64,000 bases of DNA from the NCBI GenBank assembly GCA_945861145.1, contig CAMATL010000004.1:8264-72263 (forward strand). The letters run 5' to 3'. The notes under the pieces were generated by a model that worked only from the letters and a program-made list of their open reading frames with translations, made no database searches and was not told where the DNA came from. This stretch comes from a candidate division TM6 bacterium GW2011_GWF2_37_49. GTDB taxonomy: Bacteria; Babelota; Babeliae; Babelales; RVW-14. Positions 3,055 through 54,606 of the stretch are shown piece by piece. Numbering within the stretch: position 1 is the first letter of the stretch; each line of letters begins with the position of its first letter. Position numbers and translations under genes: made by a program.

Positions 3055-3498
3055 TTACTTCGCTATTGTCGCTGTTGCTGCTGATTCTGGATTTCTCGCA
3101 ACAACCTTTGTCTTGATTGGCAATTTATATGCAGCTGCCTGTAAAATTTCTCGTGCAACAGCAAGATCAAAATCGCCCTTAATTTCAAAAATTACGCGAC
3201 CTCTCTTAACAGGAGCTGCCCAAAATTCAGTGCCACCTTTACCTTTACCCATACGGGTTTCAGCTGGTTTCTTAGAGATTGGCTTATCTGGAAACACTCG
3301 CAAAAAGGCTTCACCAAGCTTTTTCAATTTACGATTTAGTGTTATACGCACTGATTCAATTTGTCTATCGGTAAGCCATACAGGCTCAAGAGCCATAAGA
3401 CCATAATCTCCAAAATGGACCGTGCGCGCCCCCTTAGAAAGACCCTTCAATGATCCTCGTTGTGATTTGCGAAATTTTGTTTTTTTGGGCATTAACAT
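3055..3498 (-). CDS. rplP: 50S ribosomal protein L16
   Basis: 147 aa, MLMPKKTKFRKSQRGSLKG... Confidence 0.96.
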   Translation of the reverse strand: MLMPKKTKFRKSQRGSLKGLSKGARTVHFGDYGLMALEPVWLTDRQIESVRITLNRKLKKLGEAFLRVFPDKPISKKPAETRMGKGKGGTEFWAAPVKRGRVIFEIKGDFDLAVAREILQAAAYKLPIKTKVVARNPESAATATIAK

Positions 3499-19037: not shown

Positions 19038-20066
19038 TTAGGAATTAAGCGCTTTGAACGCTCTTGCAAGTCTGTGACGGTTTTCAGCTAAGTAAGTCGC
19101 AACCTTGGTTGAATCATTACCGAAGTATGAGTTCAACGAAGCCAAGAGTGTTTGAAGATCTGCATCACTGAATAAGTCAAACACGTCAACTGTTTGTAGT
19201 GAGTCAGTCACGGCAGTATTTACACTAAAGCCAGCAAGGTTATCGCTGTTAATTGTGTAAGAAACTACGCCAGGATTCCAAATAGGATGTGTGGTGTTGA
19301 CGGTGTTATTATTCCAATTTGATTCATAGAAACCTTTATTATTTGTACCACCAGTTGTCAAGTAACCTACTGTGGTGGTGTAATTAGCCCATGGAACAAA
19401 TCCAATTGAAACGTTATTGGTAATTGCTTCCTTGCGCACAGTTAGTGTCAAACGGAAATCATTATTTTCTGTAACGGCTGGACCATTAAACACTCTACAA
19501 GTTGTGGATTGTTTAAAATCCTTTTTACTAACACCATTGACGCCCATGATTTGACCAGGTGTCATTTGTGGGTGGCTATAGATATCTTGTGATCGCAGAG
19601 CAACAGTCGCCATACCATTATTGACAATACCAAGCCTGTAGCTTGTTGCTGTTGTTACGAAGTCAACATCAAGCCATGCGCCACGAGCTGCTGCTGTTTT
19701 GTCTTTAAAACGAAGCTCAAGCTGTTGGTTAACAGGATTAAGTGCTTGTTGGCCCATGATGAATTTCTGGCCAGGTAGTCCGATTTTACCAATAGTTATA
19801 TCACCATTGATACGAGCAGCACCATACACGGTCAAATTACGACCTGTAGCAGCTGAACCAATTACTACATCATCAGTAATCGCTTGTGCTCTTGTAGCAT
19901 CATCATCAACTTCTTCCTCAATAGCTTGTTGTACCAATGCTTCGATGACTGCAGCAGATACTTTAGAATCTTTACGTGCAGTTGCAGCATTCGCTACTGA
20001 GAAAACCAGTGCCGCTGCCAAACTCAATGAACCAAGACGCGCTAATAAAGAATTGAGATTCTTCAT
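19038..20066 (-). CDS. hypothetical secreted protein (candidate abundant surface protein)
   Basis: 342 aa, signal peptide MKNLNSLLARLGSLSLAAALVFSVANA. N/T/G-rich body, strong terminator and a 314 bp AT-rich upstream region. No family recognised. Confidence 0.7.
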   Translation of the reverse strand: MKNLNSLLARLGSLSLAAALVFSVANAATARKDSKVSAAVIEALVQQAIEEEVDDDATRAQAITDDVVIGSAATGRNLTVYGAARINGDITIGKIGLPGQKFIMGQQALNPVNQQLELRFKDKTAAARGAWLDVDFVTTATSYRLGIVNNGMATVALRSQDIYSHPQMTPGQIMGVNGVSKKDFKQSTTCRVFNGPAVTENNDFRLTLTVRKEAITNNVSIGFVPWANYTTTVGYLTTGGTNNKGFYESNWNNNTVNTTHPIWNPGVVSYTINSDNLAGFSVNTAVTDSLQTVDVFDLFSDADLQTLLASLNSYFGNDSTKVATYLAENRHRLARAFKALNS

Positions 20067-20380: not shown

Positions 20381-22756
20381 TTATCTAGAGACAGAGCTTG
20401 AAATCAAGTCACTATTGTTTTTAATTTTTTTGGCAAAAGAACCAAGAGAATCAATGTACACAGACAAAACAAATGCCCGGTCATGTTTATTGTTACCGTA
20501 CTGACGATAAAATTTTTCTTCAACGCCAACATAGCACCCCCAACAGTGGCCTCGATATTCAAGCCGAACCTCATGTTTGACTGGCACAAGCATAAGCCCT
20601 CCCCAGCCAACAACATTCTGCTCAGTGACAAAAAATCCGCTATATTCCAGTCGAGCTCGCGCCCCCAAAGGAAAAGCGGTGCTAATAAAAAAAGAATGCG
20701 CTGATTGTGCTTGCTGGCGACGCGCACGGCTCACCGCAATATCTTGAAATAAGTACCCAAGGTGAAAATCATTATTGCCAAGTGTTGCTTTGGTATGCAC
20801 AAAGCTTGTAAGTAGTTTTTGCTGCACAGGACAAAATTCCTGCTCAAGGCTACATGAAACAGCTCCCCCCTGATACGTGGCCCCATAATCAAGTGATGTA
20901 CTGCGGAAGGTAGATCCTGTGCGTTTCGGCGCAAACCACAATGTCTGCGGCACAATATCATAGCCTTGCTTAACATAGCCGCGTAGCGCTTGCTGGCCTC
21001 CAAGTTTAAGAGAGTAATCACAAGCAACCCCAAACTGCCGCGTTGGGTAATGGCGATCAAATCGATCAAACAGCGGCCACGACTGCTGCTCTACAAACGG
21101 TGCCGCCTGGGCATACAGTCGTGGCTGCACAGCAAAAAAAGTGTCATCTGCGGCATCTACCCATTCAACAACGGGTAAAACATACCCTGCAGTCGCTTTG
21201 ATCAGTGTACGATAAGCACCATGGGCAAATAAACCGTGTTCTTCGACGCCAGCACCTAGCTGTTTCGTTGTTCCAACAACCTGCGATCGCACGCTTAGAA
21301 GAGGCAAACATGTCCCATAAAAAGTTCCCCCGCTAGTCGGCACGTGCAACGCAAGATCACCGCCATATTCAAATCGCAAGGATTCTCCTTCAGCCCGTGG
21401 AATAATGCGTTCTTCTCGCGCTAACTTTGAGAGCAAAAAAATACGCTCATTCTCTTGCTCTCGCATCAGTGCATAATCAGCCATATAAAAATCTTTATAA
21501 GAAAAAAGCCCATGTCGCCGTAGCAACCCAGTCCATAAAATTTGCGGTCTATGCAAAACACTAGAACGATTATCAAATTCCTGTACCGCCCTATCTACAG
21601 GCGCTTGCAAGATAAACTGCGACTGCTCCTGCCCCGTAAACAGCTTGTTAATTGGTACTATGGAAAAATTTTTACGCGACGTTTGTGCAACATCAAATAC
21701 AGCTTGCACAAGGCCTTGTTGGCCATAACCACGCAGCAATAGCCCGTTATAGAAGGTATCATCAACAGATTCAAGGCTATCAAAAAATTCATATCCTGTT
21801 TTTTTATCGGTACCATGATCAAGCAAGGTCAACGCCGAAACATACTCAAACCCCAAAAACTGTGGCGTCCCATACGTATGCTTGCCCTGTAGCCAATATT
21901 GCGGCTTGCCGGTTTGTACAATACTATCCCGCCGCTGCACATAAATTTGCTCCGCGTAGCCGCCATACCCCTTAAAATATCCAGCATGCTGAGCATTCGC
22001 AGCCCAACGAACTTCACCAGTGCCAAAAACGCCCCGCCCATTTTTCCAGTCAATACCGGTCGTTATATCCGCATGTTCATTGATATACCAGTAATAATCC
22101 TGCCGTACGCCAAGCCCATATTTATAATCAAGCATCAGGCGAGGCACCAAGAAGCCTGAATTTGATTTCCGACGCAACGGCACTACAACCCCAGGCAGCC
22201 AAGCCACGGTCATCTTGTTAATTAAAAACTTAATTTTTTCAAGTTTAAGGTAAGAAGGGTTATAACTAACGCTTTTAGCCTGCATTTGCCAATGAGGTGT
22301 ATCAGCATCGCACGGGGTATAAACAACATCCTTCCCCCACCAAGTACCAGCCTCATCACGATACAATTCTTTTGCTGCAAGAAACCCCTCAACCCCCTGA
22401 ATTCGAGCATTGGCAACGGTCACTTCCCCCGAAGCAATATCGATAAAGCAGCGATTGGCAAATAACAGCATCTGCTCATCTTGCAATACGATAGAACCTT
22501 GGTCCTGCGCTTGCGCACGAGCACATTGCTGGTCAACGTCAAAAAAAAGGCGATCTGAAAAAACATGCAGCCGCTGCTCAAGTAAAAAATCTACCTGATC
22601 AAAAAATACAAATTCACGCGCTGACAGTATTTTTTGCCGCACACTTTTTATCCGCACGTTGGCAGGCAACGGCAGCTTAGCAAGCACTGCCTCACCACTG
22701 AGCATGCTCCCTGCGACAGCAAAAATAAAACAAAGGCCGCGGATAAGACGCGCCAT
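20381..22756 (-). CDS. lptD: LptD/OstA-like LPS-assembly outer membrane protein
   Basis: 791 aa, signal peptide MARLIRGLCFIFAVAGSMLSGEAVLA. Size and aromatic-rich beta-barrel-like composition fit. The family call rests on overall resemblance only. Confidence 0.6.
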   Translation of the reverse strand: MARLIRGLCFIFAVAGSMLSGEAVLAKLPLPANVRIKSVRQKILSAREFVFFDQVDFLLEQRLHVFSDRLFFDVDQQCARAQAQDQGSIVLQDEQMLLFANRCFIDIASGEVTVANARIQGVEGFLAAKELYRDEAGTWWGKDVVYTPCDADTPHWQMQAKSVSYNPSYLKLEKIKFLINKMTVAWLPGVVVPLRRKSNSGFLVPRLMLDYKYGLGVRQDYYWYINEHADITTGIDWKNGRGVFGTGEVRWAANAQHAGYFKGYGGYAEQIYVQRRDSIVQTGKPQYWLQGKHTYGTPQFLGFEYVSALTLLDHGTDKKTGYEFFDSLESVDDTFYNGLLLRGYGQQGLVQAVFDVAQTSRKNFSIVPINKLFTGQEQSQFILQAPVDRAVQEFDNRSSVLHRPQILWTGLLRRHGLFSYKDFYMADYALMREQENERIFLLSKLAREERIIPRAEGESLRFEYGGDLALHVPTSGGTFYGTCLPLLSVRSQVVGTTKQLGAGVEEHGLFAHGAYRTLIKATAGYVLPVVEWVDAADDTFFAVQPRLYAQAAPFVEQQSWPLFDRFDRHYPTRQFGVACDYSLKLGGQQALRGYVKQGYDIVPQTLWFAPKRTGSTFRSTSLDYGATYQGGAVSCSLEQEFCPVQQKLLTSFVHTKATLGNNDFHLGYLFQDIAVSRARRQQAQSAHSFFISTAFPLGARARLEYSGFFVTEQNVVGWGGLMLVPVKHEVRLEYRGHCWGCYVGVEEKFYRQYGNNKHDRAFVLSVYIDSLGSFAKKIKNNSDLISSSVSR

Positions 22757-36338: not shown

Positions 36339-36839
36339 TCAAATTTTAGCAGTTATGATTGCTTTCATAGACCTCGAGCAAACAAAAATAGCCCGTAAGT
36401 CAAAATCTGTTGAATCAGTTTTATCCATTTTAAGGTCTAAAAACACCCATCCATGTATCAACGAATATATTAACCTGTTTGCAAAAATATATGATGCAGA
36501 AATAGGAATGGCTTTTTTCCCATCAGATATTGCACCAACAAGAAGATTGAACGATGTAATGGATCTTCCCGTCTTTGTATCATAAAACTTACCCGATCCC
36601 TGCATCCATTGGGAATAAATTTTCTTGATAAGTGTTTCGTCAACGACGAGAATCAACTTTTTTGCATCTTTAAACAACGTCTGGCATAGCTCTTGCAGCG
36701 TTGTAAAAATCCTATCAGCAGGCTGTAAAGTCTTTTTGTTATTGATTTTATTTTCGCGATTAATGTTGGTAAAATTTTTTCTACCAGTAGACATGATTAA
36801 ACAGAATGCATATGTTAAAAGCGTGCTTTTTGTAAGCAT
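36339..36839 (-). mobile_element. DDE transposase gene remnant (IS4/IS701-like N-terminal part)
   Basis: 166 aa with LILVVDETLIKK...YDTKTGRSITSFNLLVG, which resembles the first catalytic-Asp region of IS4/IS701-type transposases. Too short to be complete. Confidence 0.45.
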
Positions 36840-36911
36840 AATACTCTCCTTTTTGATTTGATCGTCCTGAGGAGAGTATTCTTTTTTAGATAATCAATCT
36901 AGATCGGATCT

Positions 36912-37225
36912 TTAAGCTTTTTTAGCTAGTCCTGTAGATTTTTCATCTGCCATGACAGTAAGTAGTGCAATGGCGGCTTGGCCAGCATTAGCATCTGTTG
37001 CTGCTAATGGATTAAATAGCGTTGTAATTTCATCAGAAGTTAAAGAGGAACTAGGCCTTTTTGTTGCTGACTGCGGGTTTTTTTTAGTTGACGCAGCTTT
37101 TTTAAGTATGGTTTGAACTAAAGAGGTGTTTTTTTTAACGCAGGCTTTCCTACAAGTGTTGAAATTTGGCCTAGGCAGAAAACAAGGGCACAAATAGTAA
37201 TCGAAATTTTTCTTATCAAAGTCAT
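36912..37225 (-). pseudogene. frameshifted small secreted protein, paralog of the N-terminus of the ankyrin-like gene
   Basis: ATG at 37225 with a GGAG RBS encodes signal peptide MTLIRKISITICALVFCLGQISTLVGKPALKK, then hits a stop. One extra A in the A8 run (37129-37136) would join it to the track ORF ending at 36912. Confidence 0.6.
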
Positions 37226-37265
37226 AGTATTTGCTCCAAAAGTTATGAACGTGATTAACCAATAT

Positions 37266-38390
37266 CTAGTCTTGAGATATTAAAAACGTTGGAGCGACTA
37301 TCGTTTGAAGCTCAAATTTAGGTGTAGGGACGGCAAGTGTTACGCTAGTTTTTAAATCTGTGGTTGTCATGCCACGTTGCATTGGATCCATGAGAGCGCT
37401 TTTAGTGGTATCAAAAGTTGCATAATCCGCTGGTCTAAAATTCCAGAAATTTTTAATGTTGAGGGCAGCAATTTTTTGGGATTGCGTAATGCCTAGCAAA
37501 AAAGATTTATTTAAAATAGATCCGCTATTCAATAGCGCAGCATAGTGCAGGGGGGTTGCTAACCATTGATCTTGTACTGTCAATGCGGCAATTTTTTGTG
37601 TTGCTGTGGTTCCAATAAAAAGTGTTTTTATCATATCGGTAGCATTTGGTGCAAACGTTGCTGCGTAATGTACTGGTGTGTAGCCCCAAGTATTTTTCGT
37701 GGAGATTGCTGTGGCGATTGAGGCAGAAGACGTTATTCCTGATAGAAGAGCGCTAGTGACAGCAGATTGCCCGCTGGCTGATGACATTGCTGCGTAATGG
37801 AGCGGTATTGAGCCCCATATGTCGACTGCTGTCGCAGCGGCAATGATTTGAGCTTGCGTTAACCCGCTCAAAATGGTTGATATGATGCTTGTGGCACCTG
37901 TTCTGGTATTAATACTTGAATCAACTGAGCTGCCAAATGCTGAATACAGCGCAGCAAAGTGGAGTAGCGTGTAATTGTAGCTATCATTTACCATCTCGAT
38001 CACGCCATTGCTGAGCGCTAGCCTGACGACTGGTGTTGCTAAGCTGATTGGCGTGGCATTGCCGTGAGTTGGATCTGGCGTAGTAAGTGCTAAACAAATA
38101 TTAAAAAAAGCGGTTATTGCATTGGTTTGATTGCCTGCGATAGTTGCGAGGAGCTGTAGCGCATTATTGCCGGCGCTGATTGAGGTTGATGCTAATGCAG
38201 TAGATAAAGAGCTGGTATCAGAGGAGCTTAAAGCTCTTTCCTTTGATTGTTTGACAGCTTTATTGAAGAAATTTTTTGGTAGCGGGCCTTGGTGATTTAT
38301 ATCTTTTTTGGCTTCAAGTCTTGTAGTTAAAGGTCCCATAGAAAAAATAACCGCACACAAGATGGCAGATGTTTTTTTGAATAAATTCAT
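37266..38390 (-). CDS. secreted ankyrin-like repeat protein
   Basis: Start at MNLFKKTSAILCAVIFSMGPL (GGAG RBS). At least four repeats carry the TPLHYAA/IPLHYAA/TPVHYAA core followed by LL.GIT..QKIAAL. Confidence 0.75.
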   Translation of the reverse strand: MNLFKKTSAILCAVIFSMGPLTTRLEAKKDINHQGPLPKNFFNKAVKQSKERALSSSDTSSLSTALASTSISAGNNALQLLATIAGNQTNAITAFFNICLALTTPDPTHGNATPISLATPVVRLALSNGVIEMVNDSYNYTLLHFAALYSAFGSSVDSSINTRTGATSIISTILSGLTQAQIIAAATAVDIWGSIPLHYAAMSSASGQSAVTSALLSGITSSASIATAISTKNTWGYTPVHYAATFAPNATDMIKTLFIGTTATQKIAALTVQDQWLATPLHYAALLNSGSILNKSFLLGITQSQKIAALNIKNFWNFRPADYATFDTTKSALMDPMQRGMTTTDLKTSVTLAVPTPKFELQTIVAPTFLISQD

Positions 38391-38537
38391 AGTATTAGCT
38401 CCAAAGATTAAAAACGACTGAGATACCACACGAACAAGCTAAAAAAAAGAACCAATTGAGCGCAAGATTTGAAGAAGTCTTACGTGCAATTGGTTTTTGA
38501 GCGAGAGCAGTGCGTTGGAAGTATACTCTTCACGGTT

Positions 38538-38582
38538 GGAAAACAGGATTTTGGTGGATCGCGGCTCGGAGGCCGGGATGAC
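38538..38582. repeat. solo arm of the palindromic element family
   Basis: ggaaaacaggattttggtggatcgcggctcggaggccgggatgac is the inverted equivalent of 18845-18889. No partner arm follows. Confidence 0.75.
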
Positions 38583-38809
38583 CTACTAGTAAGTCGTTAT
38601 TAAAAAGTACAGGCGGCTTTATTCCTGCCAATCGCTCTGGGGTAAGAATGGGAATGTTTTTTGAGAGTAGTATTTGCTGTCTTTCACAAATCAAACCGTG
38701 TGTTTATAGGCAGGTCCTGTCATGATAATTATGAAAAATTTCTTTTATCGCCCATGGGGAGCGAATAACTGTTTTGGCATGCTAGCAGGTCCTTTGTAGA
38801 TAATTTGTT

Positions 38810-39682
38810 TCAGGTAATTTTACTAAGAAGTATTTTTGATAAAAACTGTAAATTTTTTTGGATGAGTTCTGACTCAGTATTTTGCCAGTTATTTGTTTCA
38901 AAGTCGCGTGAAGCGAGTAGCCACAAGCTTCCTAAGACAGAGCCTAAGACTAAACCTGTGAGAGCAACTCGTTTTTGATAATCATGAAGCGATGGATGTT
39001 TCCGAAAATGGAAAATATGGTTTTCCATAACATGCAGATGGTTTAATAAACGTTTTTTCCTGTCATGTAATACGTGTAAAATTGTAGCTTTATCTGCTCG
39101 ATGGTTAAGGTATCTAGTTCTCACGGTGAGATCTTCTCTTAACCGTTCAAAAATTTCAAAAAGCTCTTTAAGTGAAATATGCTGCTCATCAAGCAGTGTT
39201 TTATTGATCTTGAGTGCAATGATTGATTCATCGTCATGCCCTTCAACAAAAGCATTGCCTGTAAGCCAATCACCACCAAGAGCCGCTTCGCCAAAAAATA
39301 ATGGCGCGAGACCAATAAAGTATTTACTGACATATGAAATATGATCGATGGCTCTAGCCCACTGGCACAATGTTTTGATGGTAGTAAAGTTGGCGATTGG
39401 GCTTAAATCTGATGGTGTTGTGTTTTCGGTAGCATTTTGCCGTGCTTCTGATGCTGCTTCCTGCTCGTATAATTGAATAGCCATTAGCATTTCTTGTGGT
39501 GTGAATTGCATTGCCCCTGCTTGCAAATGCATAGCTTGGACAATCAACGATAAACTTAGGAGGTACAAAATTGCTAGCATTAAGCCACCTATTTGTTGAG
39601 TTCGACACCGCGCAAATTTGAGTAAGTATACGAAGCTTAATGGTAAAAGCAAAAGAATTAAGGGAAATAAGTTTGGTAGCAT
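38810..39682 (-). CDS. hypothetical membrane protein
   Basis: 290 aa, hydrophobic helices at both ends; no family recognised. Confidence 0.55.
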   Translation of the reverse strand: MLPNLFPLILLLLPLSFVYLLKFARCRTQQIGGLMLAILYLLSLSLIVQAMHLQAGAMQFTPQEMLMAIQLYEQEAASEARQNATENTTPSDLSPIANFTTIKTLCQWARAIDHISYVSKYFIGLAPLFFGEAALGGDWLTGNAFVEGHDDESIIALKINKTLLDEQHISLKELFEIFERLREDLTVRTRYLNHRADKATILHVLHDRKKRLLNHLHVMENHIFHFRKHPSLHDYQKRVALTGLVLGSVLGSLWLLASRDFETNNWQNTESELIQKNLQFLSKILLSKIT

Positions 39683-39766
39683 GCAATGGGACTAACTTCT
39701 TGTATTTTTACCCTGCGTCTTGGTATGATGTTTTTCAATAGCCATATTAAATAAATCGAGGTTGAT

Positions 39767-40579
39767 ATGACAGGTAAGCGTGGATTTTTTTTTAAACGTG
39801 GACTTTTATTTGCGTTAGTATTTGGTTTTGCCTGCAGCATGGGGGACAAAAATAAAACTAATACTACAAACGAGCCGGGGTTTGCCAATCTCGCTGAAGG
39901 AGAGGGTAGCTTTCGAGCTCTTGTTTATGATGATAATAATCAATACACGCTGAAAGATTTTTCATTTTTTGGGCATACCACCGTTGGGGGTGTGCGGCGT
40001 GAAACTGATGATTCAATGACTCGTTTTGAGCTTTCAAAAATCAAAGAGCTTAAGGTTTTAAAGCCTCATTTTGATAGTAAGCGCTTTGGAGATAAAGAGT
40101 TTTTGCTTGCAGAGGTGACGGCGAGTACAGGAGCGGTGACATCTGATCTATTAGTTCCAAAGAAATTAGTAATTTGTGGAATTGATGAAAAATCTGGGTT
40201 AGAAAAATCTTGGTTTTTGCAAAAAATTGATCGTATTGTCATGCAGGGAGCAACACCTTTGGTGCTGCCCAGCATACCCTCAGTCTTGACTAATCCAAAA
40301 GCTGTTACCGCAACAACAGCTCCAACCGCACCAGCACCTTTGACGCCGGCAAGGGCAATACCGACACCTGACTCACAAGGAAAAACTAAGCATACCTTCA
40401 GGCCTGCAAAACCAAATAAATGGGACGCTTTTTATCAAAACAATCAGATGCCAAAGGGTGACACTCAAAAAGTGACGCCACCTGAAAAACGTTCTATCGG
40501 TGGAACGTTTGTGGCGATAGTCGATGCGATTATTGATTTTCTTCGCGCTATAATTAATGGTGTGTTTAAATTATTTTAA
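39767..40579 (+). CDS. hypothetical lipoprotein
   Basis: 270 aa, lipobox VFGFAC, P/T/A-rich linker, amphipathic C-terminus. Confidence 0.6.
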   Translation: MTGKRGFFFKRGLLFALVFGFACSMGDKNKTNTTNEPGFANLAEGEGSFRALVYDDNNQYTLKDFSFFGHTTVGGVRRETDDSMTRFELSKIKELKVLKPHFDSKRFGDKEFLLAEVTASTGAVTSDLLVPKKLVICGIDEKSGLEKSWFLQKIDRIVMQGATPLVLPSIPSVLTNPKAVTATTAPTAPAPLTPARAIPTPDSQGKTKHTFRPAKPNKWDAFYQNNQMPKGDTQKVTPPEKRSIGGTFVAIVDAIIDFLRAIINGVFKLF

Positions 40580-40854: not shown

Positions 40855-41823
40855 TTATTGTTTGCGGCAATAAATGCCCGAAAGTATTGGCGTAATTGGT
40901 ATTATTTTGAAGATGGTCAGTCCAGCTTGCGTGATTAATGTATTAAATTGCGCAAGAGTACGTTCTTTGACGCCAAAGATGCTAAGTAAGAGCAAATCGA
41001 TTGCTGCAAGCATGCTTGGCTCTTCTGCCTTATCCAAGACTCCTTCGATAATTACCAGCTCTTATTCAGGGCCCATAGTTGCGACTACTTGATGTAAAAT
41101 CGCAAGAGCTTGTTCGTCGGTCCAATCGTGTAAGATTCTTTTAAGGATTAGCGTTTCGGCATTAATATTGAGCGGCTCAAAAAAGCTTCCACCAATGCAT
41201 TCTAGTTTTGGGGTCTCTTGAACTAACTCAACTACATTTGGCAAATCAAACAAAATTGCGGTTGATACTGCTGCTTGATTAGTGAGAATCTTTCTCAGTA
41301 GTTGTCCATTGCCGCCGGCAATATCAGCAATTTTACCATTAAAAATTAGCTGCTGTGCGATTGCCGCGTCTTCATTGCTGGATATGCTATTCATCGCTTT
41401 ATCAAACCGCTCACTGAGCACCGGATTTTTTTTGAGAGAAGTAAAATAATCATGTCCATACAACATATCAAAGGCTGGCTTGCCTGTTTTGATTCAGTAG
41501 CTGAGGTTACCAAAGCTGTTCCAGCGCGTTTCATCATCATGGACTAAAAATGGCTTTATGCTCGCTCCATGGTGCTCAAGCAAGTGATATGAATCTGTAG
41601 GTAAAGAATACGTACCATCTTGTTCACGCGTGAAAATATTTTTGAGACACAAAAAATAGAGTAATCGAGCTAAAGTCGCTGCATCTGCGCCCGTAAGCGT
41701 AGCTAATGCAGCAAGGCTTTGCGGCCCATGCTCCAAGTGTTCGGCTAAATTAAATTCAGCTGCTGTGAATAATGCTCGCGATAAAACAATGGTTTCAAGT
41801 AGGTCAAATTGATTAATACTCAT
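40855..41823 (-). pseudogene. class I O-methyltransferase (family 2, COMT/ASMT-like) inactivated by two in-frame stop codons
   Basis: Track ORFs 41494-41823, 41062-41466 and 40855-41037 share one frame. They encode the dimerisation, SAM-binding (DIAGGNGQLL) and C-terminal parts. They are separated only by a TGA at 41494-41496 and a TAA at 41062-41064. Confidence 0.8.
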
Positions 41824-41886
41824 AACTTATGATGCCTTTGTTTTTAAATTAATGTGAATGTGTGAGGTTAGCTTTTTACGTTCAAG
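41804..41886. repeat. direct repeat A, copy 1 (83 bp)
   Basis: 81/83 identical to 43909-43991. Contains the last 18 codons of a copy of the 43932-44357 gene, its stop, and the first 7 codons of the O-methyltransferase gene. Confidence 0.95.
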
Positions 41887-41890
41887 AAGG

Positions 41891-41995
41891 CACTCTTTTT
41901 TTGAAATTCAACTCAATCATACTTAGAATCGTACCTGCCCATTTTTTTTAAAATATTGGTAGCAACAACATTAAATCGATCCCTATCAAGCGCAT
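41891..41995. repeat. direct repeat B, copy 1 (105 bp)
   Basis: 101/105 identical to 43796-43900. Covers the last 27 codons, the stop codon and 22 nt downstream of the 41913-42869 gene. Confidence 0.95.
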
Positions 41996-42869
41996 GCTTT
42001 GCAACATTCTCGGCCTCATTATCACTAATCAACGCTGTTGGCACCATAGGCGGGGTATGCAGCATCAAAAAGTGCTCTACATATTTTTCATTCTGTGGCT
42101 CTAGCGCCATCGCACGCCTCAAGTGAAAGATTCCTGTAGCATCACAACCAGTTAAATTCCTAGAATATGCTTGTGTCACAAACCTGTAGGCAAGATAGTG
42201 CACTTCAGCGTCTTCTTTTTCTTGCATAAGAAACCAAGTAAAAGCGTATGCACACAAATTGCGCTCCTCGCAACCAAGATAAATCAATACCGCGTGCAAC
42301 TCTCGCTCACTTATAACACCAAGCAGTTGTTTCGCTTGGGTAAATTTCCCCGCAAGAATATGTTGCTCGAATTGCTCTCGCTCATTGCGAGAGAGAACAA
42401 TAGGATCTTCTTTACGCTCTACTGCATCTTTGAGCGCTTCCAAGGCAGATAGGTCTTGAGAATCATGCTTAAGAACTTGTTTAGCAATAAGTGCAATTTC
42501 TTCAGCCCTAATTGGGGTCTCGGGGTAACCAAAAAGAGAAAATAATCCACCGGTATTCGCTGGATCATTGTGTCGAGAAATTTCAAATATACTTCTCGCA
42601 TGATAAGCTGCCGTGCTATAGGCTCCTGCGATAAAACTAATTCCTAATTCCGTTACATTTCGAGCAAATCGATGGAAAGTAATATTACTGTTTGTTGATA
42701 ATAGAAATGCTGCAAAGGCATATGAACAAAAATTGTACTGGTCATAAGCCAGAAGAATCAAAATTTCATTTATTTCTTCCTCATTGAAATTACAAAGCTG
42801 TTCCTGTGCTGCAAAAAAATCACCACGGATAATATTTTGAATGAATTGTTTTTTGATAGTTTTTTCCAA
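41913..42869 (-). CDS. hypothetical protein, internally duplicated; candidate immunity partner of the Hint-domain protein
   Basis: 318 aa; starts 4 nt after the upstream gene stop. The two halves are related (EEEINEILILLAYDQYNFCSYAFAAFLL versus ERELHAVLIYLGCEERNLCAYAFTWFLM). No signal peptide. Confidence 0.7.
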   Translation of the reverse strand: MEKTIKKQFIQNIIRGDFFAAQEQLCNFNEEEINEILILLAYDQYNFCSYAFAAFLLSTNSNITFHRFARNVTELGISFIAGAYSTAAYHARSIFEISRHNDPANTGGLFSLFGYPETPIRAEEIALIAKQVLKHDSQDLSALEALKDAVERKEDPIVLSRNEREQFEQHILAGKFTQAKQLLGVISERELHAVLIYLGCEERNLCAYAFTWFLMQEKEDAEVHYLAYRFVTQAYSRNLTGCDATGIFHLRRAMALEPQNEKYVEHFLMLHTPPMVPTALISDNEAENVAKHALDRDRFNVVATNILKKMGRYDSKYD

Positions 42870-42873
42870 TTTC

Positions 42874-43791
42874 TTACCTCACCCAGCCATTACCAACAGT
42901 CCTTATTCCATCGAGCACAATATATGTCACATCTACTATTCGACCACCAAAGCATACCGTTGCCTGGATAACTTCTTTACTATCTTTGTAGGGCCCATGA
43001 GTACCCGCTGTCATAGCCAGAGTAATAATCTTAACAATCTCATCCCAGTTATTGTTTGGATCAGGAACAAGATCTTGCCATTTATGCTTTTCTTGTAATA
43101 TGTGTGGTCGACTTTGTTTTTCATCAAGTCGATACTTAAAGCACTTTTCCAAGTCCCCCACCGCCTGCGGATTGTTAATTGCTATCCCAGCAGTACCTAT
43201 GGCAATAGCTCCAACAGAAAAAGCTGCTTTAGCAAACGCCCATGTCTTCAAAGCAAGCAAACTATCAAATGCAAACGATACGCCTATTCCTATGGCAGGG
43301 GCAAAATTATGTGTAAGAAATTGCGACTTAGTCACAAAGAATGTATGCGGCGCCTCTGTTGAAATGTCGTAAGCAGTGTACATCTCTTCATTTGCATTAC
43401 ACCGCATCACTTCACGGCACGGTACATGGTTGCCCTTGCTATCAAGCAGATGATTTGTAACCGCAAAATCAGATGCTACAACCCACTGCTGCTCTACTGG
43501 ATCAAGAAATTGTTGATCTGGCGCAGCGGGAATAACCTCTTTTCTTGTTGTTGTGAGCACCACCGTGCTATTGCTTAACCGCCTAGAAATGGCCGTCACC
43601 CGTGATTTCACAATTGTTTGCGCCGCTATGTCAACACCAAACAACTCATCGCCGACTCGAAGATCCTCTACACGCTTTTCGCCAGCCACAGTTGCTATCA
43701 AAGTCCCTTGAATCACAGATGGATTAAGCTGACCAGTACTCAGTAAAGCGACTACTGCAAGAACCGTTATCAATCTAGAAAACATCTTCAT
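42874..43791 (-). CDS. secreted Hint (Hedgehog/intein-like) domain protein with unknown C-terminal domain; candidate polymorphic toxin
   Basis: 305 aa; signal peptide MKMFSRLITVLAVVALLST. Hint-like GTLIATVAGEKRVEDLRVGDELF ... EMYTAYDISTEAPHTFFVTKSQFLTHN. Then a hydrophobic Gly/Ala stretch and a roughly 95 aa tail with RPHILQEKHKW. Confidence 0.6.
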   Translation of the reverse strand: MKMFSRLITVLAVVALLSTGQLNPSVIQGTLIATVAGEKRVEDLRVGDELFGVDIAAQTIVKSRVTAISRRLSNSTVVLTTTRKEVIPAAPDQQFLDPVEQQWVVASDFAVTNHLLDSKGNHVPCREVMRCNANEEMYTAYDISTEAPHTFFVTKSQFLTHNFAPAIGIGVSFAFDSLLALKTWAFAKAAFSVGAIAIGTAGIAINNPQAVGDLEKCFKYRLDEKQSRPHILQEKHKWQDLVPDPNNNWDEIVKIITLAMTAGTHGPYKDSKEVIQATVCFGGRIVDVTYIVLDGIRTVGNGWVR

Positions 43792-43795
43792 ACCA

Positions 43796-43900
43796 CACTC
43801 TTTTTTAGAAATTCAACTCAATCATACTTAGAATCGCACCTGCCCATTTTTTTTAAAATATTCGTAGCAACAACATTAAATCGATCCCTATCAAGCTCAT
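43796..43900. repeat. direct repeat B, copy 2 (105 bp)
   Basis: Orphan 3' end of a 41913-42869-like gene, abutting the start of the Hint-domain gene. Confidence 0.95.
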
Positions 43901-43928
43901 GGGTAAGCTCAAATTGATTAATGCTCAT
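43818..43928 (-). pseudogene. chimeric 36-codon remnant ORF (methyltransferase start fused to partner-gene end)
   Basis: Translates to MSINQFELTHELDRDRFNVVATNILKKMGRCDSKYD. Its first 7 codons match the start of the O-methyltransferase gene. Its last 26 codons match the end of the 41913-42869 gene with one substitution. Confidence 0.8.
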
Positions 43929-43991
43929 AACTTATGATGCCTGTGTTTTTAAATTAATGTGAATGTGTGAGGTTAGCTTTTTACGTTCAAG
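43909..43991. repeat. direct repeat A, copy 2 (83 bp)
   Basis: Genuine 3' end of the 43932-44357 gene plus a copy of the methyltransferase start. Confidence 0.95.
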
Positions 43992-45247: not shown

Positions 45248-46759
45248 TCATGGTGAGTGTTTTTCGCTATGCGAAAAATGTATCGATCCATACAATTTTT
45301 CATTGAGTCCAAACCAACGGTCAAAGATGACTGCTGCTGCGGATCGGACTGATAAATGGTTGTATGAGGTCATACCATTTACCGGTAAAAGTAGGTAATC
45401 GCATCGTTCAATAATGGATGAAGAAAGGCCATGCGCTGTACCAAAAATAAAGAGTACTGGGCGGTTGTGAGCCCACACCGTTCCTTGACTGTGGTAGTCA
45501 ATTTGCGGAGTTTGAAGTTGTTGCTTTCTCGCGCAGGTGGCTATCATAAGTGGTGCTGCATTTTCGATTTGTGTGATTTTTTCAATAACTTCGTCGATTG
45601 ATGATGCAGTTTGTACGCTATGCATCGCTTGGTAGCGATTTTTATTGTATTCCTTTCCGTCGTGCGATTTCCAGAAATCAAGGAAGGTATTGACCAGTTG
45701 GGCTTGATCCTCAAGCTTGGTTACCAAGAAATACCCCTTGAGGCCAAAGGTTGCGCTTGAACGAGCGATGTCATGAATATCAAGCGAGGCAACTGAACTT
45801 GTGCCGACGGCGCCGCCTTTTAAAACAATTTCGCTATGCATGAGTACGACATAGTGATTAGGGATTATTTTTTGAGCAAGTTTAAGCTCTGCAGGCGTCG
45901 GGTTATGTTCTCTAAACCAATCAAAACGCTTGAGTAGCGTGTTTTTGCATGCTTCTTCGCGTCGCCAGTTGGCTATTGCTAGGTGATTGCCTGACTTAAC
46001 AATGTCGGGCACTGTCTGTTCCCGCCAGGTGATAGTTTGCCCGTACTGCGGGTGATCAAGCAGGGCGCCGCTAAATGATTCATGGTCGACTGATTCTTGG
46101 CTGCCAACTATTCCTGGAATGAGGCGTAAAAAAGCTTCAAGAAATACCTGCGCTGGTAGATCACCACCCATGAGCACGTAGTCACCGATAGAAATTATTT
46201 CGTCAGCAAAGGTTGCTTCTGCACGAGCATCGATGCCTTCGTAGCGTGTTGATACGATGATAAGGTGTGGTTGCTCGGAAGAGGAAGAAGTACTGGATCT
46301 CGGATCGGCGTCCGGGATGACAGAATTTGCAATTGGATGTAGTTGGGTATTATTGAGGGTGTCTTCCTCTAATTCCTTGTCATCCCGGACATTGATCCGG
46401 GATCCATCCTTGACTTGATCGGGAGATATGAGCGGAGTACCCGCAAAAATTTTTGCTTTAAGATTGTGTAAAAGTGGCTGATCGAGGCGTTTACCTTGCG
46501 GCGTGAAAAAAATATTAAACCCTTTGCCCCAGCGTTGCTCAGCTTGTGCGATTCCAGCTTCGATGAGTGCTGGTTTAATAATCATGCCACTGCCTGGGCC
46601 TGCTGTAGCCTCGTCAATGCGTTCTTTGAGTGGGCAGAGCTGCGAAAATTTAATGAGCTGTACCTCTATTAAACGTTGATCAACAGCCCGTTTAACGAGA
46701 CTTGTATTTAAGAAAGGCTCAAAAATTTCTGGAAAAACGGTGATAATTGATATTTTCAT
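45248..46759 (-). CDS. trmD: tRNA (guanine37-N1)-methyltransferase TrmD fused to a C-terminal SPOUT-like domain, carrying an in-frame palindromic-element insertion
   Basis: 503 aa. N-terminal MKISIITVFPEIFEPFL...TRYEGIDARAE...SIGDYVLMGGDLPAQVF is TrmD. The C-terminal 200 aa, ending YNHLSVRSAAAVIFDRW, resembles the TM1570/PF09936-type predicted RNA methyltransferase. Confidence 0.88.
   Translation of the reverse strand: MKISIITVFPEIFEPFLNTSLVKRAVDQRLIEVQLIKFSQLCPLKERIDEATAGPGSGMIIKPALIEAGIAQAEQRWGKGFNIFFTPQGKRLDQPLLHNLKAKIFAGTPLISPDQVKDGSRINVRDDKELEEDTLNNTQLHPIANSVIPDADPRSSTSSSSEQPHLIIVSTRYEGIDARAEATFADEIISIGDYVLMGGDLPAQVFLEAFLRLIPGIVGSQESVDHESFSGALLDHPQYGQTITWREQTVPDIVKSGNHLAIANWRREEACKNTLLKRFDWFREHNPTPAELKLAQKIIPNHYVVLMHSEIVLKGGAVGTSSVASLDIHDIARSSATFGLKGYFLVTKLEDQAQLVNTFLDFWKSHDGKEYNKNRYQAMHSVQTASSIDEVIEKITQIENAAPLMIATCARKQQLQTPQIDYHSQGTVWAHNRPVLFIFGTAHGLSSSIIERCDYLLLPVNGMTSYNHLSVRSAAAVIFDRWFGLNEKLYGSIHFSHSEKHSP
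46295..46405. repeat. 111 bp palindromic element inside the trmD reading frame
   Basis: Arms ggatctcggatcggcgtccgggatgaca (46295-46322) and tgtcatcccggacattgatccgggatcc (46378-46405), same family as 18795-18872. Length is 37 codons, translated as GSRINVRDDKELEEDTLNNTQLHPIANSVIPDADPRS. Confidence 0.85.
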
Positions 46760-52956: not shown

Positions 52957-54606
52957 TTATGCAATTGCTATTTGAGTAATTGAAATATTAGACCATGTTG
53001 GGGTTATTAAGTTTTGTGCGATTATATTAGAAAGATCAAGTTCTTTGATTTGGTTATATGAATGCATTCCGGCATCCGTATAAGTGAAAAAATAATTCAT
53101 GGATCCAGAGTCACTTAAAAATGCTGACGCTGCGCTATTAAGCGTTTGGCCATGTGCAAAAGAAATATTACCTCGGATCAAGGCTGTAGAATTATTGGCG
53201 AAATCCTTAAAGCCGTAGGCTCCGCCTGTACCAATATTTGCGAGCATGGTGTTGTATTGGATAGTGCTTTTTATGCAGGTGCGCAGTAGAGCTATACCAT
53301 AACTTTTGGTGCTTGCAATGTTACCATTGGCCTCGCATGCTTGAATGGTTGAGCTTGTTGCACCAAGTAGCGTAAAACCGTATGAGGCACCTTTGGTAGC
53401 AGTATTGCCAATTGACTTGCAGGCTTTAAAAAAACCACTAGAGCAGGTTGTTGTTAAATCAATACCAGATTGAAAGCCATAAGTGGCTCGAGAGGCGCCG
53501 CCATTGCCTATGGCTAAGCAGGTTTGAAAGAAATTGCTATGTGATGAGCTTAATTGAAAACCACTTGTAGTGCCACCGCCAAGATTGCCTTTTGCTTCGC
53601 AGTTGGTGAAAGAATTGCTGTTAGAGCCTTCAGCTAATCTAAAGCCATACGTGGTGCTTGTTGCTATGGTTGATAGGCCGTTATTTGCAATACAATTTGA
53701 AAAGGTGCTGCCTGTTGACCCTGCAAGATCTATTCCTGCAACCACTATCGATGTACCGAGGCTTCCAGTTGAGCTGCTGCGAAGAGCTTTAACGCTATCA
53801 CACATAACGCCCGCACAAGCGCTTAGATAAATTGCTTTTGCAATGCCTGTGGCAGCAGTAGTGTTACAGACTTGAATATTACTCATAGTGAGATTATTGC
53901 ATGCCGCGGCATAAATGCCGTATGCCGGCACTGCACTAGGTGCAGTAGTTTTGTTAAAGGTCGAATCTATGATAGAGATGTCGCTGCATGAAGTTAACAC
54001 AAGCCCTCGAGCCATGCTTGTGTTAGCAGGATTTGTTTGAGATCCATTGTTGTATAAATGCACATTATTTAAAACAACACCGGTGACTGTATTCAAATTT
54101 ATGCCTTCAGTGGCACAGTTAACAACGTGCACATTATCAATAAACAGATTAGTAAGGTTGGTGTTGGCTTTGATTCCTGTGGTTGTACTAACTAAGGTGC
54201 TTTTGCCATTAATGGTACCATTCATGATGGTAATGTTGCTTAAACCCGTGGCAATTTCGATTGCGGAGCTATTTTTTTGATTGGTAGAAGTTGAAAGTGT
54301 TATTGTTTTGCCGCCAAGATCAAGTACAACATCAGAAGTGTTAATGTAAATGCATGCAAGATTGGAGCGAGCAGGTGCAGCCATTAAATCAGTTGATAAA
54401 AAATAGCGACCAGAGGTGCTGATAACAAATTGGCCATTAGAGGCAGTTGATGCCGAACTAAGCGATGAAGATGTAATTGAAAACACTGTTGTACCAACGG
54501 AGTGTGTGGGTTGGTAAATTTTTGACACATTGCCATTATCAGTTGCACCAAGAAATGACACTCCTAAAAATCCAGATAAAAGAGTTAACCAAAAACGTAT
54601 TGCCAT
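52957..54606 (-). CDS. secreted right-handed parallel beta-helix repeat protein
   Basis: 549 aa, signal peptide MAIRFWLTLLSGFLGVSFLG. Iterated roughly 22-24 aa units such as TYGFRLAEGSNSNSFTNCEAKGN, TSGFQLSSSHSNFFQTCLAIGN and SYGFTLLGATSSTIQACEANGN. Confidence 0.7.
   Translation of the reverse strand: MAIRFWLTLLSGFLGVSFLGATDNGNVSKIYQPTHSVGTTVFSITSSSLSSASTASNGQFVISTSGRYFLSTDLMAAPARSNLACIYINTSDVVLDLGGKTITLSTSTNQKNSSAIEIATGLSNITIMNGTINGKSTLVSTTTGIKANTNLTNLFIDNVHVVNCATEGINLNTVTGVVLNNVHLYNNGSQTNPANTSMARGLVLTSCSDISIIDSTFNKTTAPSAVPAYGIYAAACNNLTMSNIQVCNTTAATGIAKAIYLSACAGVMCDSVKALRSSSTGSLGTSIVVAGIDLAGSTGSTFSNCIANNGLSTIATSTTYGFRLAEGSNSNSFTNCEAKGNLGGGTTSGFQLSSSHSNFFQTCLAIGNGGASRATYGFQSGIDLTTTCSSGFFKACKSIGNTATKGASYGFTLLGATSSTIQACEANGNIASTKSYGIALLRTCIKSTIQYNTMLANIGTGGAYGFKDFANNSTALIRGNISFAHGQTLNSAASAFLSDSGSMNYFFTYTDAGMHSYNQIKELDLSNIIAQNLITPTWSNISITQIAIA

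Follow-up and report, generated by a model that had tools for sequence, protein, structure and literature searches.

A probable two-gene toxin–immunity cassette, coupling a degenerate Hint domain to a predicted Ntox35 ribonuclease, in a Dependentiae (TM6) bacterium

The toxin domain Ntox35 was described by Zhang et al. 2012 (PMC3482391) as a predicted ribonuclease (RNase) of the BECR fold with a conserved 'H, KH' motif, and was recorded in chlamydiae and other phyla; the relevant table gives RHS repeats for the family and neither a HINT peptidase nor an immunity protein, and places Ntox35 among the MafB-type tips, while immunity-linked toxins are said in the same study to be rare in intracellular bacteria. 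A 2026 review (PMC13460014) lists Ntox35 as a tRNA-cleaving RNase, and the Ntox35 toxin of Staphylococcus aureus is histidine-dependent, its H205A mutant failing to kill Listeria (bioRxiv 10.1101/2025.07.24.666436). This S. aureus BetaH-Ntox35 toxin, in which cleavage by an external S8 peptidase uncages an amphipathic helix that aids entry of the RNase into cells, is the closest functional parallel to the locus considered here, a pair of adjoining minus-strand genes at 42874..43791 and 41913..42869 of a 64,000-nucleotide stretch of DNA (hereafter the window). The combined evidence makes it probable that this pair is a recently inserted two-gene polymorphic toxin–immunity cassette encoding a Hint-released Ntox35 RNase in a Dependentiae bacterium.

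The open reading frame (ORF) list placed a frame of 305 codons, running from ATG to TAA, exactly at 42874..43791 of the minus strand. Since full-length homologues of 64-66 % identity are present in public metagenome assemblies, and three curated profiles matched the product in Pfam and NCBIfam scans, the ORF is not attributable to chance. Homologous toxin proteins are designated P0001-P0005, and related loci or contigs from public metagenome assemblies are numbered from L001 onward. A preliminary description of the gene, made from the sequence letters, had proposed the succession of signal peptide, Hint-like fold, hydrophobic stretch and tail, and this architecture was borne out, the ORF being exact, every quoted string present and the profiles matching, as follows:

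42874..43791, minus strand: toxin gene, 305 amino acids (aa), with signal peptide, degenerate Hint domain, hydrophobic linker and Ntox35 (ORF, Pfam, homologues P0001-P0005)
43717..43791, minus strand: Sec-type signal peptide, residues 1-25, MKMFSR followed by LITVLAVVALL and STGQLNPS (hydropathy)
43306..43716, minus strand: Hint domain (PT-HINT or bacterial intein-like), residues 26-162, ending in LTHN
43177..43305, minus strand: hydrophobic Gly/Ala-rich segment, residues 163-205, with two transmembrane-like or glycine-zipper-like stretches (hydropathy windows)
42877..43119, minus strand: Ntox35 toxin domain, residues 225-305, with H230 and K235-H236 (Pfam, conservation)

The N-terminus comprises a basic n-region (K2, R6) followed by a hydrophobic core, with Kyte-Doolittle (KD) values of 1.5-1.6 in 19-residue windows across residues 1-27, and inspection of the sequence revealed no lipobox cysteine in the leader. 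The leader was judged by hydropathy only, so that the signal-peptidase cleavage site is a putative one. Homologues carry a small residue (S, G or A) just ahead of the Hint core, and such small residues at the position of the canonical Cys1 fit a signal-peptidase site, so that the leader peptidase would itself make the Hint N-terminus. Together with a leader-like N-terminus and an Ntox35 domain ending one residue before the stop, both of which are expected of a polymorphic toxin, the profile matches support the assignment of the product as a putative Sec-exported polymorphic toxin bearing a degenerate Hint domain and Ntox35.

Profile searches of the kind originally advised for PF07591 and PF13403 gave 35.7 bits for PT-HINT (PF07591), above the Pfam cut-off of 27.7, and 28.1 bits for Hint_2, marginally under its cut-off of 28.4; the NCBIfam model intein_Cterm scored 18.8 bits against a cut-off of 15.6. 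Residues 26-162 align over their whole length with a bacterial intein-like (BIL) domain of solved structure, 2LWY (E 2.3e-6), and when the Hint part of a low-confidence AlphaFold2 (AF2) model was submitted to Foldseek the top PDB matches were BIL domains and inteins. The earlier proposal of a Hint-like fold was thereby upheld, principally by the PT-HINT score and the full-length 2LWY alignment. The latter was also used to place the canonical positions of the domain, the conservation of which was then scored across 11 family members:

Residue 1: canonically Cys; here Ser25; in the family S, G or A, and not conserved
Block B: canonically T-x-x-H; here A90-P-D-Q93; in the family Gln93 is invariant
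Block F: canonically His; here His149; in the family nearly invariant
C-terminus: canonically His-Asn; here His161-Asn162; in the family T160-H161-N162 is invariant
+1 residue: canonically Cys, Ser or Thr; here Phe163; in the family F, V, I, A or T

Asparagine cyclisation depends on a C-terminal His-Asn pair and the block F histidine, and the N-terminal acyl shift on a nucleophile and the TxxH motif. The domain is therefore a Hint domain by fold and by profile which lacks the N-terminal nucleophile and TxxH, and possesses the block F His and His-Asn pair on which C-terminal cyclisation would rely. Because Cys1 and TxxH are gone and His149 and His161-Asn162 are retained, the acyl shift appears to have been lost and asparagine cyclisation kept, and the only plausible self-cleavage is accordingly one at Asn162. 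This pattern of retained and lost residues agrees with the initial view that C-terminal cleavage after Asn is the sole credible chemistry, as does the 2LWY alignment with the identification of Phe as the +1 residue. The parallel statement that a Cys/Ser nucleophile is missing requires qualification: Ser25 does occupy the Cys1 position, although no nucleophile is conserved there, the homologues having S, G or A. Across the family, identity in the rest of the Hint domain drifts to 27-54 % while T160-H161-N162 stay invariant and His149 nearly so. An intein capable of protein splicing was considered and ruled out, the +1 residue being the non-nucleophilic Phe163, with V, I or A in close homologues.

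The segment which follows the Hint domain would form the N-terminus of any fragment released at Asn162. It had been described as a Gly/Ala-rich stretch of 45 residues; the stretch is present, with two KD windows exceeding 1.5 (1.72 for residues 163-181 and ~1.6 for residues 185-205), but its length is 43 aa (163-205) rather than 45.

By way of contrast with the suggestion that the last ~95 residues matched no nameable family, the tail was readily assigned to Ntox35 (PF15534), residues 225-304 matching positions 3-78 of the 78-position Pfam model with 48.3 bits against a cut-off of 23.6 (E 1.6e-12). The 'H, KH' motif, whose two histidines belong to the N-terminal helix of the domain, corresponds to H230, K235 and H236, of which H230 and H236 do not vary among close relatives and are at least 90 % conserved across 99 Ntox35 members, and the spacing between these two histidines (H-x5-H) equals that of H199/H205 in the S. 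aureus toxin. In the AF2 model the tail consists of helices (residues 207-262) followed by four strands (264-304), with pLDDT values there of 42-56. The tail of the toxin is predicted to be an Ntox35 RNase, for which tRNA would be the substrate by analogy with S. aureus.

When the tail profile was used in an exhaustive HMMER search, 240 representative clusters were returned at E <= 0.001, and among the 150 matches listed nearly all have Ntox35 at their extreme C-terminus. Most carriers are short, the median being 223 aa among 148 representatives retrieved (some of the short entries being fragments), and a short Ntox35 protein is consequently normal for the family; the want of a long delivery region, previously regarded as unusual, is not so. 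Among 99 carriers of at least 180 aa, RHS was found in 9, PT-HINT in 8, PT-TG and glycine zippers in 2 each, and LXG in 1.

The gene which follows the toxin gene begins four nucleotides beyond its stop codon, and its product divides into two lobes:

41913..42869, minus strand: probable immunity gene, 318 aa, TTG start 4 nt past the toxin stop (linkage)
42405..42869, minus strand: immunity N-lobe, residues 1-155, variable, co-varying with the type of toxin tail
41916..42404, minus strand: immunity C-lobe, residues 156-318, the conserved half, with most of the invariant residues

The TTG start is preceded closely by GGTGAGG. Hydropathy gave no indication of a hydrophobic N-terminus or signal peptide in the partner protein, and no significant Pfam or NCBIfam family was found for it. 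Its two halves are homologous (29 % identity; lobe-to-lobe E 2e-15), and AF2 yielded a confident all-alpha model (pLDDT 90.5, pTM 0.79), for which Foldseek returned generic TPR-type solenoids only (best E 7e-3, TM <= 0.3). Comparison with PDB profiles gave designed TPRs as the best match (E 0.0025), and TPR_19 matched 5 of 14 partner homologues (best E 1.8e-4). A named Imm family was sought and not assigned, the searches having given only generic, weak TPR-like matches.

As for the linkage between the two genes, a homologue of the partner gene lies directly after the toxin gene in L001-L006 and L013-L016, that is, in every related locus, and the pair is found between at least six different sets of flanks, including the following:

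L001, L005 and L015: ABC transporter and RF-1-like gene
L002: NupC
L013: UvrB
L006: periplasmic binding protein
L016: triose-phosphate isomerase and SecG
Window: rplS, lipoprotein-like gene and O-methyltransferase gene

In L014 the partner homologue follows an Ntox35 gene with an Ala/Pro/Glu-rich N-terminus in place of a Hint domain. Splitting, a stop or a frameshift has disrupted the toxin gene of L002, L013 and L014, in each of which the partner gene is intact; in L013 (5061-5981) the damage consists of a single in-frame TAG just ahead of LTHN. In L015 the toxin gene is reduced to fragments and the partner gene is largely intact, though N-terminally shortened, at 282 aa. Retention of the partner alongside a broken toxin is the pattern expected of an immunity gene which is still useful after loss of the toxin. 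The product of 41913-42869 is therefore the probable immunity protein of the toxin, an assignment made from linkage only, and the cognate downstream gene looked for in a polymorphic toxin locus is here represented by conserved linkage and co-variation. The profiles, this linkage and the co-variation likewise sustain the original suggestion of a candidate polymorphic toxin with a downstream partner gene.

The co-variation became apparent when identities (in %) were calculated separately for each part of the toxin and its partner:

Window against P0001 (L001): Hint 54, linker 83, Ntox35 79, partner 80 (first 92 residues)
Window against P0002-P0004 (P0003 being that of L003): Hint 75-82, linker 30-71, Ntox35 43-49
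Window against the L003 partner: N-lobe 47, C-lobe 82

These mosaic identities supply the strain-variable C-terminal tip by which polymorphic toxins are recognised. As judged from the alignments, the unit swapped between strains is the linker, Ntox35 and the partner N-lobe, beginning right after THN, and such a mosaic, with its breakpoint immediately after the presumptive cleavage motif, is the hallmark of a polymorphic toxin locus. That the N-lobe co-varies with the toxin tail suggests that it is this lobe of the partner that carries the specificity for the toxin.

A second line of evidence concerns the recent history of the pair. On the minus strand the order of elements is the lipoprotein-like gene, repeat copy D2b, TACC, repeat copy D1b, the toxin gene, the immunity gene ending in D1a, CCTT, D2a and the O-methyltransferase gene, D1 being a direct repeat of ~106 nt (96 % identical) and D2 one of 86 nt (97 % identical):

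43796..43901, minus strand: D1b, orphan copy of the final 84 nt of the immunity gene, followed by 22 nt, just 5' of the toxin ATG
41891..41996, minus strand: D1a, authentic 3' terminus of the immunity gene, followed by 22 nt
43906..43991, minus strand: D2b, authentic 3' terminus of the lipoprotein-like gene, with an orphan copy of the initial 23 nt of the O-methyltransferase gene
41801..41886, minus strand: D2a, orphan copy of the final 60 nt of the lipoprotein-like gene, with the authentic O-methyltransferase start
43818..43928, minus strand: chimeric ORF at the insertion junction, 36 codons, MSINQFEL followed by THELDRDRFNVVATNILKKMGRCDSKYD and a stop

When D1b was searched by tblastn, 27 aa matched the immunity protein at 93 %, and the 22 nt appended to D1 resemble the conserved region upstream of the toxin gene, with its ribosome-binding site. 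D2 runs from the end of the lipoprotein-like gene through TAA and GTT into the methyltransferase gene, of which it covers the first 23 nt, and represents the intact target site, 86 bp in length, duplicated by the insertion. The chimeric ORF, apparently created by the insertion junction, is probably non-functional. The insert as a whole comprises a unit of 1905 bp with 106 nt of terminal redundancy and 4-nt fillers, and on account of this redundancy looks like a copy taken from a tandem array or circle.

Contigs from other samples confirmed the existence of unoccupied sites. In L011 and L012 the lipoprotein-like gene is followed by the methyltransferase gene with a single D2, at 99 % identity to the window flanks (93 % on the methyltransferase side of L012), and L010 carries the filled arrangement. 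Both D2 copies of the window have G at a position where both empty alleles have A; the shared G indicates that the two D2 copies are sisters, and that the empty alleles are not recent excisions of the window allele, a possibility which was considered and judged unlikely on this ground. Coding-strand guanine–cytosine (GC) skew is +0.19 and +0.10 in the cassette and -0.07 to -0.22 in neighbours on the same strand, an opposition which fits a recent arrival. Taken together, the repeats, empty sites and skew indicate that the cassette was inserted recently between the lipoprotein-like gene and the O-methyltransferase pseudogene, and is absent from some members of the population. The ORF list and a Pfam scan revealed no recombinase, transposase or integrase in or beside it; both duplications could be accounted for by staggered breaks of ~90-100 nt, made in the donor as well as the target and then filled in, although this is offered by way of inference only.

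Comparable structures were seen elsewhere. In L002 (1988-2164) the complete immunity gene is followed directly by an orphan fragment which corresponds to residues 1 to ~60 of the TPR-like protein, apparently another trace of tandem or displaced cassettes. In L003 a 71-nt direct repeat (35-105 and 3061-3131; 89 %) brackets the toxin–immunity pair and two more genes, and may be another long target duplication. IMG/VR viral contigs contained no relative of either the toxin or the partner protein, and nothing therefore indicates carriage by phage; JGI metagenomes held no relatives of the partner gene; and only one related locus was encountered among the GTDB species representatives. Promoter and terminator scans found such sites to be no more frequent than expected by chance.

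The sequence of events envisaged for the toxin begins with export of the precursor via Sec, whereupon removal of the leader would free the Hint N-terminus and so make an N-terminal acyl shift unnecessary. Asn162 would then cyclise and the chain be cut between Asn162 and Phe163, freeing a 143-residue fragment (163-305) which consists of a hydrophobic head and the RNase. The head may next enter the membrane of the target and aid the RNase to reach the cytoplasm, this being the least certain of the steps, and once there Ntox35 would cut RNA, presumably tRNA by analogy with the S. aureus enzyme. In the producer and its kin, the immunity protein would bind and block the toxin domain, probably via its N-lobe. 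The adjacent immunity gene, the swapping of modules and the presence/absence polymorphism favour rival bacteria as the target.

A number of observations weigh against this interpretation. For the toxin as a whole AF2 gave a poor model (pLDDT 40, from an alignment of six sequences), the BECR fold predicted for the tail rests on the Pfam match and on secondary structure modelled at low confidence, and the tail profile gave no meaningful match when run against PDB sequences. The two transmembrane-like stretches could merely hold the toxin in the inner membrane of its producer, and no path for the toxin across the outer membrane is evident. A similar hydrophobic segment precedes Ntox35 in 42 of 110 representatives (38 %), which is not a significant enrichment over the 12 of 45 control segments (27 %; Fisher p = 0.20), and the idea that a hydrophobic pre-toxin segment is a hallmark of the Ntox35 family was dropped in favour of its being a recurrent feature only. 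The frameshifts noted above, occurring as they do in metagenome contigs, may be assembly errors. Finally, five distant Ntox35 loci (L017, L018, L020, L021 and L022) have an unrelated protein of ~120 aa directly downstream of the toxin gene instead, and the TPR-like family is thus not the universal partner of Ntox35.

The ~120-aa proteins are mutually conserved, with motifs REFTGxGFFT and DTLEGF, and belong to no Pfam family. The copy in L018 (572-937) sits between an Ntox35 toxin gene, whose product is 29 % identical to that of the window, and a gene two places after it encoding a single-lobe TPR-like relative (E 2e-20 with the partner profile). It is likely that the ~120-aa protein constitutes a second, unrelated Ntox35 immunity family, in which case Ntox35 toxins would use at least two candidate immunity families.

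A more elaborate version of the same scheme would make the toxin a self-contained device, in which the Hint domain serves as both cage and trigger and, once Asn162 has been cleaved, a Gly/Ala-rich, glycine-zipper-like head carries a tRNase across the membrane of its target without dedicated secretion or import machinery, the purpose being the exclusion of other strains by obligate intracellular Dependentiae inside a shared protist host; the cassette would then spread via a circular or tandem intermediate which leaves duplications of ~100 bp on both partners. Taken as a whole, this chain of proposals is rather unlikely.

A different target is envisaged if the protein is a host-directed effector, the RNase being freed in the protist host to cut tRNA of the host or its organelles, with the partner serving as a guard against unexported toxin. 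Dependentiae are known only as parasites living inside protist cells, tRNA offers a universal target, and the neighbourhood contains a secreted ankyrin-repeat protein together with unassignable secreted or membrane proteins of a kind typical of effectors. Zhang et al. 2012 (PMC3482391) also make the case that intracellular bacteria direct many of their toxins at the host, yet the same authors take a dedicated adjacent immunity gene as a sign of inter-bacterial conflict. Moreover, the exchange of tail and immunity N-lobe as a module between strains, the persistence of the downstream gene after decay of the toxin, and the presence or absence of the cassette among near-identical strains are all expected of conflict between strains, and action on the host is in consequence considered improbable.

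If the Hint domain were catalytically dead, the protein would stay intact, anchored by its hydrophobic hairpin in the membrane on the periplasmic side or at the surface, and would either act without release or not be a toxin at all. The loss of Cys1 and block B, the two transmembrane-like stretches and the lack of any outer-membrane export system linked to the toxin gene are compatible with this proposal. It is nevertheless very unlikely given that the residues for asparagine cyclisation remain conserved as the rest of the domain drifts, and that the swapped module begins right after THN, just as other polymorphic toxins have it start behind a demarcation motif. Least probable of all is a chiefly selfish addiction module, a small mobile unit whose losers are killed by neighbours or residual toxin and for which competition is a side effect: its compactness (1.9 kb), terminal redundancy, 86-bp target duplication, at least six insertion contexts, empty sites and mismatched GC skew would suit such a unit, but no mobility enzyme (recombinase, transposase or integrase) accompanies it, the toxin has a leader peptide unlike the intracellular toxins of classical toxin–antitoxin pairs, and the idea overlaps with the toxin–immunity cassette preferred here rather than excluding it.

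The bacterium carrying the cassette is a member of the Dependentiae (TM6), ribosomal protein L2 encoded in the window being 92 % identical to MBM3886658.1, annotated as 'Candidatus Dependentiae bacterium'. A chlamydial or Legionella-like affiliation, at first suggested by GC content and ankyrin genes, was set aside accordingly; EF-Tu compared with the PDB, and Rfam, gave no guidance on taxonomy. The window is chromosomal, with the str/S10 ribosomal operons and genes for a PBP and for LpxC, BamD and YidC, which together imply a diderm cell. Immediately downstream of the cassette, the O-methyltransferase gene (40855-41823, minus strand) is a frame of 322 codons with an in-frame TGA at codon 110 and TAA at codon 254, and is evidently a young pseudogene. 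Its decay is independent of the insertion since the empty-site contig L011 has the TGA too. An alternative genetic code was rejected as an explanation, the in-frame stops encountered, in the O-methyltransferase gene and in the toxin gene of one homologue, involving TGA, TAA and TAG, all of which are normal terminators in the window.

Further from the cassette, a number of separate observations were made. A run of genes without family assignment (36339-40579) lies beside it and includes one (37266-38429) whose 387-aa product has ankyrin repeats and a hydrophobic N-terminus, as well as those for two proteins of 270-290 aa with hydrophobic N-termini; this run looks like an effector or variable island. 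Between ~34000 and 38000 the GC skew flips sign, with a cumulative minimum near 36 kb and with mnmE and yidC close by, and the region near 36 kb could be a replication origin. The ffh-rpsP-trmD-rplS genes to the right of this minimum are on the minus strand, contrary to the direction expected. TrmD (45248-46759, minus strand), at 503 aa, joins the tRNA m1G methyltransferase domain to a second RNA methyltransferase domain, PF09936 (Methyltrn_RNA_4), and this fusion recurs in related contigs. Three further ORFs, at 19038-20066, 20381-22756 and 52957-54606 (minus strand), encode products of 342, 791 and 549 aa with no Pfam match at E <= 1e-4.

Several consequences follow from these assignments. 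The annotation of the locus is settled as a PT-HINT/Ntox35 toxin with a partner gene, and the domain offers a natural example of a Hint cut down to C-terminal cleavage, for which signal peptidase would make the N-terminal cut. No paper pairing Dependentiae with polymorphic toxins or immunity proteins was found in the open-access literature; the known range of polymorphic toxin–immunity systems would be extended to this lineage. The two-lobed TPR-like protein, whose N-lobe tracks the type of toxin, is a new candidate immunity family. As filled and empty alleles are both at hand, the toxin cassette appears to have been caught soon after insertion, and its mode of spread is testable.

When compared with the S. 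aureus BetaH-Ntox35 system (S8-PTS/ABP; AbpT, AbpP and AbpI), the locus shares a Sec leader, a C-terminal Ntox35 with the same H-x5-H spacing, a cytoplasmic immunity gene adjoining that of the toxin, and proteolytic processing which would liberate a membrane-active segment lying immediately ahead of the RNase. By way of contrast, no gene for an S8 peptidase is present in the window locus, where the built-in Hint domain would do the processing, and the toxin is without BetaH, as deduced from the assignment of its N-terminal part to Hint. The segment freed would here be neutral, Gly/Ala-rich and hydrophobic, whereas that of S. aureus is a cationic amphipathic helix, and the hosts are respectively a diderm member of the Dependentiae and a Firmicute. 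The candidate immunity protein of the window toxin is a two-lobed TPR-like protein of 318 aa.

The PT-HINT polymorphic toxins (Zhang et al. 2012) resemble the locus in having Hint immediately 5' of a variable toxin which is predicted to be released by autoproteolysis, in Sec export (designated 'T2SS') and in the downstream immunity gene, but most of them terminate long RHS, filamentous or other stalks, whereas here the leader gives way directly to Hint. The likeness to BIL domains, as typified by 2LWY from Clostridium thermocellum and BIL2 of Tetrahymena (6TMM), is one of fold, indicated by the full-length sequence alignment (E 2.3e-6) and, less strongly, by the Foldseek matches, and of a C-terminal His-Asn with a non-nucleophilic +1 residue, which would lead to cleavage rather than splicing. 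Unlike them, the present domain has block B Thr and His replaced (APDQ) and an unconserved Cys1 position, so that the chemistry of N-terminal cleavage is absent and signal peptidase would create the N-terminus.

The MafB toxins of Neisseria, finally, are likewise Sec-exported proteins of a diderm, for which no dedicated secretion machine is recognised, and are accompanied by an adjacent immunity gene and orphan fragments. They differ in that DUF1020 was not matched here (Pfam, E <= 1), and in that the window protein is much shorter and possesses a Hint domain. Viewed against these systems, the toxin is a fairly ordinary addition to the known polymorphic toxin systems, the family to which its tail belongs being already known and experimentally supported.

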